A stretch of 20,518 bases of DNA from the IMG/VR virus record IMGVR_UViG_2740892214_000001; one strand, written 5' to 3'. Every line of letters begins with the position of its first letter. The stretch's first letter is position 1. Positions 1,095 through 15,467 of the stretch are shown here, in pieces. A program made the translations under genes and the position numbers. The notes beneath the pieces were generated by a model, which was not told where the DNA came from, ran no database searches, and worked only from the letters and a program-made list of their open reading frames with translations. This stretch comes from a virus. Its lineage: Duplodnaviria > Heunggongvirae > Uroviricota > Caudoviricetes.

Positions 1095-1742
1095 TCAGCG
1101 ACCAATCACCACAACCTGACCACCGTCCCCTTCGTCTGCCGTGCTGATCTCCTGAGAAACCACCCGCGACCCCACACGCATTTCACCGTACAGAACAGGC
1201 AAAACATTGCCCTGAGCAACCATGTTATCCAGTGAGGAAAAATAGGTGTTCTGTTTGCCGTTATCTGTACTGGCTGCCGTGGACGTCCTGGCTTTCGGTG
1301 CCAGCATCTGCGCCACACCGCCCAGGATCATACTGGCCCCTGCCGCATACATGCCCGATACAGCCGCGGCACCCAGCCAGCCCACAGGGTTCCACCATGC
1401 CACCGCAATCAACGCCGCCCCCAGCACCACCTGAAATACACCGCCACTTTTAGCTCCCGCCAGACGCGGCACGATATGGATCACGGCACCATTTGCCAGC
1501 GGCTCATTAAGACGGGCAGATAATTCGGTTTCACCTGCATCACGCCCGGCAATGCGCACCTGATACCAGCCGTCATTCAGTTTCTGACGAAACGCCGGGA
1601 GCTGTGTGGCCAGCGCCCGGATGGCTTCGGCCCCCGTTTTCACACGAAGGTCGATGCGGCGGCCAAATCGTTGCAAATCCCCGTAAAGGCAGATGCGTGC
1701 CATGCCCGGTGACGCCAGAGGGAGTGTGTGCGTCGCTGCCAT
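1095..1742 (-). CDS. I: Tail assembly protein I
   Basis: 215-aa ORF starting MAATHTLPLASPGMARICLYGDLQRFGRR and ending VSQEISTADEGDGGQVVVIGR, matching lambda gpI as recalled; overlaps the 3' end of K by 103 nt, the same overlap I recall for lambda K/I. Confidence 0.9.
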   Translation of the reverse strand: MAATHTLPLASPGMARICLYGDLQRFGRRIDLRVKTGAEAIRALATQLPAFRQKLNDGWYQVRIAGRDAGETELSARLNEPLANGAVIHIVPRLAGAKSGGVFQVVLGAALIAVAWWNPVGWLGAAAVSGMYAAGASMILGGVAQMLAPKARTSTAASTDNGKQNTYFSSLDNMVAQGNVLPVLYGEMRVGSRVVSQEISTADEGDGGQVVVIGR

Positions 1743-2383
1743 TTGTCGGTATACCTCTCTCGTTTGCTCAGTTGTTCAGGAATATGGTGCAGCAGCTCGC
1801 CGTCACCACAGTAAATGGCGGCATGATTCGGCACCGATGAACCAAAACAGCACAGCAGCACATCGCCCGGCTGCGCCGCTGACAACGGCACCTGATACAG
1901 CCCTGTGGCCTCCAGATTATCCAGATAGAGATTCTGACCGTGACGCCACCAGTCATCCCCGCGATGAAAATCCTGCATCTCAATCCCCGCCAGATGATAA
2001 GCATCCCGGAACAGCGTGTAACAGTCCGTCACCCCGTGCTCAAAGCGCCGCCCGGTAAGATGCGGCACACTGCGGAATTTATGAATCTCACCCCGGCAGA
2101 CCAGCCACCAAGGCAAATCGCTCTGCACCTGCAGCCGCCTGTCAGCCTCACTCAGCCAGGGCAGACCACCGGGGTGGCTGTGGACCAGCGCCACAATCTC
2201 ACCCTGCATCTCTGCCCGCAGCCAGTCCTCCGGCGACATCCGGAAATACGCCTCCGGCTCACCGGAGATATTCACGCTGGGAAAATATCTTTCCCCCTCC
2301 GGCGTTCTCACCACGAAGCCGCACGATTCCGCTGGCGCACATCGCCGGGCGTGCGCCAGAATCGCTGATTCTGTCTGTGTCAT
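1640..2383 (-). CDS. K: Tail tip assembly protein K (JAMM/MPN metalloprotease-like N-terminal domain plus NlpC/P60-like C-terminal domain)
   Basis: Start trimmed from track ORF to ATG 2381..2383 (MTQTESAILAHARR), 4 nt after the L stop. Contains E-x(n)-HSHPGGLPWLSEAD (JAMM-type motif) and a downstream Cys-containing DCYTLFRDAYH segment. Gene order L-K-I as in lambda. Confidence 0.85.
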   Translation of the reverse strand: MTQTESAILAHARRCAPAESCGFVVRTPEGERYFPSVNISGEPEAYFRMSPEDWLRAEMQGEIVALVHSHPGGLPWLSEADRRLQVQSDLPWWLVCRGEIHKFRSVPHLTGRRFEHGVTDCYTLFRDAYHLAGIEMQDFHRGDDWWRHGQNLYLDNLEATGLYQVPLSAAQPGDVLLCCFGSSVPNHAAIYCGDGELLHHIPEQLSKRERYTDKWQRRTHSLWRHRAWHASAFTGICNDLAAASTFV

Positions 2384-2387
2384 GGGA

Positions 2388-3086
2388 TTACTGCGAAAGT
2401 TTGTTAATGGAAAGGAAGCCGCCAAAGTTGCCGACGTTATTGCGAAACTTACAACCACTCAGGCATTTGCTGCATTTATCCTTCGTGATATCGGACGTCG
2501 GCTGGTCATATTCATCAGCGACAGCCGGACCGCTATAACCGCACTCATCACCGCGATAGGTCCAGGTGCAGGTGTTGGCCAGCATGATGCGCCCCGGAAA
2601 AACAGCACCATCCGTTTCCGTCGGTGTGGAGAGCACAAAGGAGGCACTGACCGCACTCAGTTCGCTACACTGCTCGATGCGCCAGCGGCTGATCACCTCC
2701 TGCTCCGGATCGGCGTCGCTGTTTCCGTTGACGAAGTTCACCGCATCCAGAAAACGGGCGTAAACCTTACGCCTGACCACCGTTCCGCCGACCAGACTCT
2801 GCAGGTCTTCCGCCATCCCGGTGACCATGCCGTGCAGGTTAGAGACCGTCAGTGTCGGACGGGCAGCACTGCCCTTACCGTTCAGTTCAAATCCCGTCCC
2901 CTGAATGGGGTATGCCTGATACTGCCGCCCCTGCCAGGTGACCGGCTCACCTTTTTCGTTCTGCTCATTACAGAAAAAATAACGTTCACCACCGACCTCT
3001 GTCAGATCGATTTCCCAGAGCACCACCTGGGCTGACTGAGTAAGGCGTGTCGTCTCATGATGTGTTTCCTGTGGAATATCCTGCAT
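2388..3086 (-). CDS. L: Minor tail protein L
   Basis: 232-aa ORF, near-identical over most of its length to lambda gpL as recalled (MQDI.QET...VVLWEIDLTEVGGERYFFCNEQNEKGEPVTWQGRQYQ...); same length as lambda L. Confidence 0.95.
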   Translation of the reverse strand: MQDIPQETHHETTRLTQSAQVVLWEIDLTEVGGERYFFCNEQNEKGEPVTWQGRQYQAYPIQGTGFELNGKGSAARPTLTVSNLHGMVTGMAEDLQSLVGGTVVRRKVYARFLDAVNFVNGNSDADPEQEVISRWRIEQCSELSAVSASFVLSTPTETDGAVFPGRIMLANTCTWTYRGDECGYSGPAVADEYDQPTSDITKDKCSKCLSGCKFRNNVGNFGGFLSINKLSQ

Positions 3087-13368: not shown

Positions 13369-15467
13369 AACCATCCTCCGGAAGTCAGCCAGGGGTTAAC
13401 ATCGTCAGTTACTGTTTTCTTCCGTTTTTGTTTTTTAACAGGCGTGGATACCGGTTCCGGTGAGGATGACGGTTCGGTACTGTCCTGGACACACTCCAGC
13501 CAGGTTTCCCGGCTCGCCCACTCCGGTGCATCCGGCCAGCGGATCTTTTCGTATCCATGCAGAATGACCAGAGCCTCGGCATACACCATCAGGTCAAAAG
13601 CTTCGTTGGCACCGCGACCCGGCTTACTCCATTTCCCGTCACTGCTCCGCTCTTCATACGTCAGTTCGTCGTAAAACCAGCTCCCCAGCCAGTCAGGGAA
13701 ATGCACATAGCCGGGACCTGGCGAGTCACGCCATAACGCGTTATTCACCCGGTCTTTCAGTGCATCCGTCTGAAGAAGCCAGAGCGGCACATCACCTGCG
13801 GCCTGCGCCCGTCGGCCCGTTCGTCCGGTGTTATCAGGGAATGTACGGGTGATCAGTTTTGCGCGCCGGATGCTGTCGCCCTTAAACAGGTAAATACGTT
13901 TACCAAGGCCATCACGACGGCAACGACGCCAGAATTTATAGGCATTATCAGTGACCCCGTCTTCACCGCCGGAGTCCACCGCCATTGCCATCAGTCGCAT
14001 TTGTTGAGAAGGATCGGAGGCCAGCGGCCAGCTTTTATGAAAAACATCCGTCAGCAGGACATCCCAGTCTTCCGGATAGCTGGCCGGATCAATTCGCTGG
14101 CTCTCCCCGTCGCTGTCACCGCGCAATGACTGCGTGATGTTGTAACGATCAATAATCCAGCGTTCGCCACGGCTGCCATAGCCCGTTACCTGAACCACAA
14201 AACGGCGATGACGTCCCGCCTGCACATCCACTGTCGCCACAAGGAAATTAACGCCATCCGGCACACTGCGGGAAGGAACTGGCTCTGCCCGCTGCTCAAG
14301 CAGTTCACTTTTTCGTTGCTCCATGCTGGCGCGGGGAAGATAAGGTAATCCCCAGTCGGTATTGATAACCGTCTTGAGTGTTTCTTCACTTCCGGTTGTC
14401 TCGTATTCCTGTTCTGCAGTAAGCAGTTTGTAAACGAGTTGCGAGAGTGTCTGGTAAGCAGCTGCCGGACCCTCCATCCAGAATGACGCAATACGTGAGC
14501 GTCGGGGATCACCATAACGACTGCCATCCGCATTGATGGATTCACCATCCCGCAACCAGACCCCACGTCCGTTCAGCTCACGTTTGTGTTCAGGCATAAT
14601 CCGTCCTGAACAGGAAGGACACTGAATATAAGCCGCCTCACTTGCCAGCACGGGATCGGCAATATCACGGAAACCAGCAACCACATCGCCGCAGGGCTGA
14701 AAATACTCACCACAGTGTGGACAGGGCCAGTACCAGCGACGGCGATCACCACGGTTATAGAGCGACAGGATCCCCGTGGTTGGTGGAGCCTCATGCGGTG
14801 AAGTCCGTCGCCATTTCACATCCTTCACATCCCTGCCGGGGGAACTCTCCACCAACGTCATACCGCTGGACATAAATGTGGTGGTACGTTTTGAGGCAAG
14901 AGAGAAGGCATCCCCCTCGCCATCAATATCTTCCGGAAAACGGTCATAATCCGTCAGCGCGACGCATTTATAATCTGATGAGGACATGATATTGACTGAC
15001 GGCCAGCCGATTTTCAGGTAGTTGCCAGCAAGGAATGTTCTGTCATAAACGTTGTTGTCATTTTTGTTCGGACTCAGGCGACTGACCACTTCCGGGCTGA
15101 CGCGAAACGTTCTGGCGAGTCGTTTTTTGGAGTGTTCGCGGGCTTTTTCCTCCGTCATCTGAATGATCAGCATATCAGCAGGATCGCAAATCACGTTGTA
15201 AATCACCCAGCCGTCAATCAGGCCGATAGTCTTGCCGGTTCGTGCCGGGCCAACAAATATCACTGCGTCGTATTCACGCGAGGCCAGGCAGTTCATCGGC
15301 TCAATAACATACGGTGCCACCAGCGGATCCCACGGGACTGAGTTCCCGGCCCCCATGGGCACCCGCATATACTGAGCAACGGCATCAGCAACCCGCATTC
15401 GTCTCGGTGCGCGAAGGATATAACCTGAATCGGTTCGTGCTGCCTTTGCGGTTTCCTGATTCAGCAT
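13365..15467 (-). CDS. Terminase large subunit (GpA family)
   Basis: 700 aa; Walker A-like GPARTGKT; CPHCGEYFQP and WIIDRYNI segments resemble lambda gpA CPHCGEE and WLIDRQII; start ATG overlaps the small terminase stop (TAATG). Confidence 0.9.
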   Translation of the reverse strand: MLNQETAKAARTDSGYILRAPRRMRVADAVAQYMRVPMGAGNSVPWDPLVAPYVIEPMNCLASREYDAVIFVGPARTGKTIGLIDGWVIYNVICDPADMLIIQMTEEKAREHSKKRLARTFRVSPEVVSRLSPNKNDNNVYDRTFLAGNYLKIGWPSVNIMSSSDYKCVALTDYDRFPEDIDGEGDAFSLASKRTTTFMSSGMTLVESSPGRDVKDVKWRRTSPHEAPPTTGILSLYNRGDRRRWYWPCPHCGEYFQPCGDVVAGFRDIADPVLASEAAYIQCPSCSGRIMPEHKRELNGRGVWLRDGESINADGSRYGDPRRSRIASFWMEGPAAAYQTLSQLVYKLLTAEQEYETTGSEETLKTVINTDWGLPYLPRASMEQRKSELLEQRAEPVPSRSVPDGVNFLVATVDVQAGRHRRFVVQVTGYGSRGERWIIDRYNITQSLRGDSDGESQRIDPASYPEDWDVLLTDVFHKSWPLASDPSQQMRLMAMAVDSGGEDGVTDNAYKFWRRCRRDGLGKRIYLFKGDSIRRAKLITRTFPDNTGRTGRRAQAAGDVPLWLLQTDALKDRVNNALWRDSPGPGYVHFPDWLGSWFYDELTYEERSSDGKWSKPGRGANEAFDLMVYAEALVILHGYEKIRWPDAPEWASRETWLECVQDSTEPSSSPEPVSTPVKKQKRKKTVTDDVNPWLTSGGWL

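Follow-up and report, generated by a model that had tools for sequence, protein, structure and literature searches.

A 247-residue reading of gene K in a lambda-type tail operon, with a complete JAMM motif and a base missing from the lambda reference

The tail assembly gene K in the 20,518-nucleotide stretch of virus DNA analysed here (hereafter, the window) is, in our firm judgement, intact and ordinary, a tail tip assembly gene of the lambda type: its product has 247 residues counted from the ATG at 2383 and combines a JAB/JAMM domain with an NlpC/P60 domain, and the 199-residue form is the product of a reference sequence from which one G is missing. This is the correct reading of a known protein and a matter of annotation, not a new biological feature, since the JAB plus NlpC/P60 architecture and the JAMM motif were published in 2003-2006 and 247-residue annotations already exist. 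In the lambda reference (NC_001416/J02459; NP_040598), K is short by 48 residues through one missing base, and cloning, modelling or mutating K from that reference removes the catalytic Glu together with three secondary-structure elements of the JAMM domain. The truncated K has been copied into the records of Gifsy-1, DE3, lambda imm21 and recent prophages.

The window carries its tail genes on the minus strand, arranged H-M-L-K-I-J as in lambda. A preliminary description of this DNA had claimed that an open reading frame (ORF) of 247 codons opens 4 nt after the stop of L, and the coordinates bear this out, with the TAA of L at 2390..2388 and the ATG of K at 2383..2381; the K frame closes with a TGA at 1642..1640, and its product is a 28.2-kDa protein. 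Of 5,426 complete E. coli genomes, 4,374 contain similar DNA, and the matched feature in them is named 'C40 family peptidase'. The features referred to below are the following.

2388..3086, minus strand: gene L (minor tail/tail tip protein L, 232 aa), directly upstream of K
2384..2387, minus strand: L-K spacer of 4 nt, between the L stop and the K ATG
1640..2383, minus strand: full-length ORF of gene K, 247 codons plus TGA, with an N-terminal JAB/JAMM metallopeptidase and a C-terminal NlpC/P60 cysteine peptidase domain (predicted)
2240..2383, minus strand: K codons 1-48, a segment that the classical 199-aa annotation leaves out; in the modelled JAB fold it contributes helix 3-15 as well as strands 21-27 and 30-36
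2327..2329, minus strand: JAMM Glu19, codon 19 (GAA) in ..PAESCGF.., aligning with the JAMM Glu of solved proteins
2141..2182, minus strand: zinc-site half of the JAMM motif, H-x-H-x7-S-x2-D, codons 68-81, HSHPGGLPWLSEAD, placed by conservation counts
2237..2239, minus strand: internal ATG (Met49), by alignment the counterpart of the annotated lambda K start at 14276
2251..2255, minus strand: GGAGG, Shine-Dalgarno-like, 11 nt upstream of the internal ATG and part of the long-frame codons E-P-E-A (residues 42-45)
2249..2249, minus strand: the G absent from J02459/NC_001416 after reference position 14266, from the alignment and an ORF check of eight loci
1712..2053, minus strand: NlpC/P60 domain of K by Pfam, residues 111-224, with Cys121 and His187/His199/His200
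1095..1742, minus strand: gene I, 215 aa, overlapping the 3' end of K by 103 nt; ubiquitin-like domain at residues 14-97, then Gly100-Gly101

The JAMM motif was defined by Ambroggio et al. (PMC300881), who described its Glu as hydrogen-bonded to the zinc-bound water and predicted it to be the acid-base catalyst. All elements of the motif E-x(n)-H-S/T-H-x(7)-S-x(2)-D are contained in the 247-residue ORF (E19, H68-S69-H70, S78 and D81), so that the earlier claim that the extra 48 residues hold the Glu completing a JAMM motif with the HSHPGG..S..D segment is confirmed by Glu19 in PAESCGF together with H68, H70, S78 and D81. The product counted from Met49 (ATG 2239..2237), which has 199 residues, is without this Glu. 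When compared with the Pfam profile Prok-JAB (PF14464; curated cut-off 25 bits), residues 3-100 of the 247-residue K matched profile positions 3-108 of 114 with 50.9 bits, whereas the 199-residue K matched profile positions 63-108 only, with 23.3 bits, which is below the cut-off. Residues 1-48 by themselves matched Prok-JAB profile positions 3-40 (E = 1.2e-4). The second half of the protein, residues 111-224, matched the entire NLPC_P60 profile (PF00877, positions 1-105 of 105) with 45.7 bits, against a cut-off of 23.

Structural comparisons point in the same direction. In a search of PDB profiles, the K family profile aligned from its position 2-9 with the solved JAMM proteins 2kks, 2kcq and 5lda (PfJAMM1), and the family PxExCG aligned with their Glu-bearing motif (P)xE(x)CG. 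The AlphaFold2 model of the 247-residue K has a mean pLDDT of 97.3, with values of 97-98 for residues 1-48, and it places a helix (residues 3-15) and two strands (21-27 and 30-36) in the core of the JAMM fold. Foldseek matched the first ~107 residues of the model to PfJAMM1 (TM(target) 0.67, rmsd 2.5 A), AMSH, CSN5 and Rpn11, and the rest to NlpC/P60 enzymes of the MepS type and to Clostridioides difficile cell wall hydrolases (hits 8xup, 7v6t and 9ubf). On these profiles and models, residues ~1-105 of K are predicted to be a JAB/JAMM (MPN+) zinc metallopeptidase domain, and residues ~111-224 an NlpC/P60 papain-like cysteine peptidase domain. Since the first helix, two core strands and the acid-base Glu19 all come from residues 1-48, a product started at Met49 is predicted to contain a broken and catalytically dead JAB.

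To assess conservation across homologues, 1.84 billion cluster representatives were searched exhaustively, and 2,676 relatives of K were found at E <= 0.001. In full-length relatives at 35-50% identity (about 230-260 aa), the query residue ~4-10 aligned with their own residue ~4-15, and most homologues have 8-17 residues ahead of the column of the conserved His11. Residues were counted in 104 distant homologues (<65% identity) and, separately, in 52 close enterobacterial ones. Among the distant homologues, P17 was retained in 91, E19 in 99, C21 in 93, G22 in 101, N38 in 99 and F47 in 93, and at the zinc site H68 was retained in 101, H70 in 100, S78 in 95 and D81 in 101; that is, the six N-terminal residues are kept as strongly as the zinc ligands H68, H70 and D81. 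Glu19, Cys21, Gly22 and Asn38 are conserved in collinear homologues of 31-50% identity, Glu19 is found in all 52 close homologues, and C121, H187, H199 and H200 of the second domain are at least 90% conserved (78 sequences). The alignment of homologues proposed in the preliminary description thus revealed conservation upstream of Met49, and Met49 itself was found to be poorly kept: position 49 is Met in 13 and Ile in 61 of the distant homologues, and Met in 24 and Ile in 23 of the close ones, with Ile, Leu or Val together accounting for 28 of the 52.

Selection at the protein level was estimated against Salmonella phage Gifsy-1. In codons 8-48 the dN/dS ratio was 0.122, in codons 49-247 it was 0.117, and the differences between the two K genes in codons 8-48 were distributed over the three codon positions as 3/5/14. 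An open stretch of 48 codons is by itself weak evidence for coding; however, the segment 1-48 is more than a chance opening, since it matches Prok-JAB on its own, holds near-invariant residues and is under purifying selection equal to that on the rest of the gene. The earlier claim that the long form is the functional protein is accordingly supported by Pfam, the PDB profiles, AlphaFold2 with Foldseek, the collinear N-termini and dN/dS. The classical view, in which the functional K is the 199-residue protein from Met49 only and the upstream 148 nt are an untranslated gap between L and K, can appeal to the annotation of the lambda reference, to its copies in DE3, lambda imm21, PhiR47_1 and Gifsy-1, and to the Shine-Dalgarno-like GGAGG before Met49. 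We consider it highly improbable, because this supposed gap is under protein-level purifying selection and encodes near-invariant JAMM residues, the short form falls under the Pfam JAB cut-off, and the gap in the reference arises from a missing base.

The missing base accounts for the classical length. In the lambda RefSeq/GenBank annotation, K is placed at 14276..14875 and has 199 aa (NP_040598), and the alignment of this gene with Met49 upholds what the preliminary description had said about the equivalence of the two starts. The cause that it implied was incomplete, as the short form is not simply a matter of start-codon choice but of a G missing from J02459. In the alignment, GGAGGCGTATTTCC of the window, mEp460 and PhiR47_1 stands opposite GGAGGC-TATTTCC of the reference; the absent G follows NC_001416 position 14266 (locus L001 position 1267) and corresponds to window position 2249. 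Without this G, the upstream ATG of J02459 is out of frame with K: in NC_001416 the ATG that follows L (record position 14133) opens only a 76-codon frame that is out of register with K. The classical 199-residue K is thus a consequence of a 1982 lambda reference lacking one G after 14266.

Other lambda sequences carry the base. Five lambda-derived records, namely LC730321 (48,503 bp), DE3, KT232076, lambda imm21 and PV340536, contain the additional G together with an unbroken long K ORF; the ORF has 247 aa in the four whose examined stretch extends to the stop, and that of LC730321 stays open as far as its examined stretch goes. Notes by a commercial supplier on its lambda sequence reportedly record two differences, the loss of a G at 138 and the gain of one at 14266. 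Both of these changes appear in independent data, in Table 5 of a whole-genome study of the MutaMouse (PMC6760142), in which '137 AG>A' and '14266 C>CG' were constitutional differences of the lambda-gt10 transgene from the reference. A search of 50,697 phage records yielded just four that agree with the reference stretch at every base. Two of them, J02459 and NC_001416, are one and the same sequence; the others are an UNVERIFIED and unannotated record of lambda strain lambdaS3243, and a cloacal-swab isolate with gene coordinates identical to those of the reference. J02459 might carry a real, strain-specific frameshift or a mutation of the clone that was sequenced, but the lambdaS3243 and cloacal-swab records are the only two further ones without the G, and we suspect that both derive from the reference sequence. 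The missing base in the 1982 lambda sequence is very probably a sequencing error. No paper stating that lambda K has 247 aa, or tying the additional G at 14266 to K, was found in a literature search in which subscription-journal work on lambda was thinly covered.

The ATG at 2383 is the sole start codon that lies downstream of the L stop and upstream of the conserved His11..Glu19. It has no Shine-Dalgarno sequence (anti-SD duplex +0.7 kcal/mol), in contrast to the internal ATG at 2239, which is preceded by GGAGG at 11 nt (-9.5 kcal/mol); the bases equivalent to this GGAGG are labelled as an RBS in the lambda imm21 record. The L-K spacer measures 4 nt in the window and PhiR47_1, 5 nt in lambda and mEp460, and 6 nt in Gifsy-1. 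No Shine-Dalgarno motif was found in the spacer of the window or in the homologous spacers of loci L001, L002, L011 and L015, which fits translational coupling of K to L. The spacer appears short enough for coupling by termination and reinitiation, and the ATG at 2383 is probably reached in this way from L, whose stop is 4 nt away. Among the window and these same four loci, the L stop codon differs between otherwise nearly identical phages, being TAA, or TGA in L011. In the searched literature, no N-terminal sequencing, proteomics or ribosome profiling that fixes the N-terminus of K was found.

The GGAGG before Met49, the only substantial argument that some initiation occurs there, raises the question of nested products, in which the 247-residue K would be accompanied by a 199-residue protein consisting of NlpC/P60 with a JAB remnant, by analogy to the in-frame nested late products of lambda. 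The GGAGG with its duplex of -9.5 kcal/mol and the repeated choice of Met49 on intact ORFs by annotators and gene callers speak for such a pair. We nevertheless think it unlikely, as position 49 is Ile, Leu or Val in more than half of the close homologues (28/52) and is not Met in 91 of the 104 distant ones, the GGAGG bases double as E-P-E-A codons and stand at a long spacing of 11 nt, and the JAB remnant would lack one helix and two core strands. Because Met49 is poorly conserved, any 199-residue isoform is not a feature of the family. A minor short isoform made from Met49, in the subset of phages that have this residue, is less likely than the de-ubiquitinase-like reading of K described below.

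A start still further upstream was also examined and rejected. The frame is open back to an in-frame GTG at 2458, from which a protein of 272 aa overlapping the end of L would be made, and we regard this as next to negligible. Homologues have only about 8-17 residues before His11, the K frame of Gifsy-1 is closed right after the L stop, and the variation in spacer length between close relatives (4, 5 or 6 nt) means that the frame upstream of the ATG is unconserved. The 247-residue product from the ATG at 2383 is retained here as the reading of K.

Short annotation has spread well beyond the reference. An intact long ORF is present in DE3, lambda imm21, PhiR47_1 and Gifsy-1, yet 199 aa are annotated in all four; K is annotated from yet another start in KT232076, and as 247 aa in PV340536 and the mEp460 RefSeq record. 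A 2020 review likewise gives gpK 199 residues and one peptidase domain only. In a metagenome protein collection, most close homologues have 247 or 245 aa, and there are large clusters of 199 aa too. These 199-residue proteins were considered as real truncations, which was rejected: the 247-aa ORF is intact on three of the four contigs checked, so that the short call there reflects the start choice of the gene caller, for which the GGAGG before Met49 and the lack of a Shine-Dalgarno sequence at ATG 2383 are the likely reason. On the fourth contig (locus L014; ENA ERZ28660271 scaffold_37003), a TAG replaces Tyr46 (GCGTAGTTCCGGATG), some 8 nt ahead of the gene call at 79; the long ORF is truly interrupted at this locus, through either decay of a prophage copy or a sequencing error.

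Protein family collections show a comparable pattern. When window positions 1643-2383 were compared with PHROGs, phrog_7305 ('unknown function', 76 positions) matched K residues 1-76 only, phrog_2635 ('tail protein', 135 positions) matched residues 1-132 only, and phrog_2552 and phrog_24556 matched C-terminal parts of K only. Such matches suggest that pieces of K, or split calls of it, were the material for these families. With 76 positions, phrog_7305 is exactly as long as the out-of-frame ORF of the lambda reference.

The closest known system is lambda gpK itself, the 'TAPK' of Iyer, Burroughs & Aravind (2006), with which K of the window shares the gene order, the JAB plus NlpC/P60 architecture and the 103-nt overlap with I. 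The two proteins are identical at 236 of 247 positions (95.5%) when lambda is represented by PV340536, a record with the extra G, and they differ by 11 substitutions, including Ser36 here where most relatives have Cys, and by an L-K spacer of 4 nt in place of 5 nt. The mismatch in length is with the reference annotation (199 aa, NP_040598) and not with the real lambda gene. Codon 36 (window 2276-2278, minus strand) lies outside the JAMM motif; the residue is Cys in 48/52 close and 57/104 distant homologues (..YFPCVN..).

A second comparison is with prokaryotic JAMM/MPN+ enzymes that process ubiquitin-like proteins, such as Pyrococcus furiosus JAMM1 with SAMP2 (5ld9/5lda) and the haloarchaeal desampylase. 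K resembles them in its complete motif, in a predicted fold that superposes on PfJAMM1 with TM 0.67 and rmsd 2.5 A over about 107 columns, and in its adjoining gene, which encodes a ubiquitin-like protein ending in Gly-Gly. The NCBIfam desampylase model matched K residues 3-115 weakly, with a score of 28.7 that is far under the cut-off of 130. Unlike these enzymes, the JAMM domain of K is fused to NlpC/P60 and placed in a phage tail-assembly operon, there is no E1/E2-like partner here, and the presumed substrate is a linear fusion and not an isopeptide conjugate. The second domain is comparable to E. coli MepS/Spr (C40 NlpC/P60), as it matches the full-length Pfam NLPC_P60 profile and has the conserved Cys121, His187 and His199; in contrast to MepS/Spr, K shows neither a signal peptide nor a lipobox context, and its action is cytoplasmic, in the course of assembly. 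Tail assembly in lambda depends on K, but the protein has not been found in virions, which makes a cell wall substrate doubtful, and gpK was likewise undetected in virion mass spectrometry (PLoS Biology 2023 supplements).

The neighbouring gene I suggests what the JAB domain may act on. In the description of Iyer et al. [quoted passage not shown] In a 2024 cryo-EM study, gpI was resolved only from residue 101 onward, which is suggestive in that it fits cleavage after Gly-Gly, and it fits disorder equally well; the PLoS Biology 2023 supplements list one peptide of gpI, with its position unstated. Based on these observations, the N-terminal, ubiquitin-like domain of protein I may be the target of the K JAB domain while the tail tip is being assembled, the cut would fall at or near Gly100-Gly101, and K itself would not be retained in the virion.

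That K, with a complete and presumably active JAMM, serves as a 'de-ubiquitinase-like' maturation enzyme of the phage that cuts the ubiquitin-like domain off I at Gly100-Gly101 is a tentative reading, possible rather than probable in our estimate, and it makes the prediction of Iyer et al. (2006) more concrete. No report of zinc binding, of peptidase activity of either K domain or of cleavage of I was found in the searched literature. If this reading is true, cleavage of I by K would explain both the resolution of gpI from residue 101 and the absence of K from virions, and earlier work with the 199-residue reference K, including clones, two-hybrid screens and HHpred surveys, would have been done with an incomplete protein.

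The annotated start of gene I likewise varies between records. In lambda, DE3 and Gifsy-1 it is an ATG 103 nt inside K (window 1742, anti-SD duplex -9.3 kcal/mol), in PhiR47_1 it lies 37 nt inside K, and in mEp460, KT232076 and PV340536 it is the GTG of a GTGA overlap with the K stop (window GTG 1643). The coordinates of gene I compared with those of the window were 2058-2606 in locus L002, 2024-2605 in L003 and from 1475 in L006 and L008. Because Lambda_tail_I begins at residue 14, both later starts cut into the ubiquitin-like domain. Met14 of I (ATG 1703) is an alternative start that keeps this domain.
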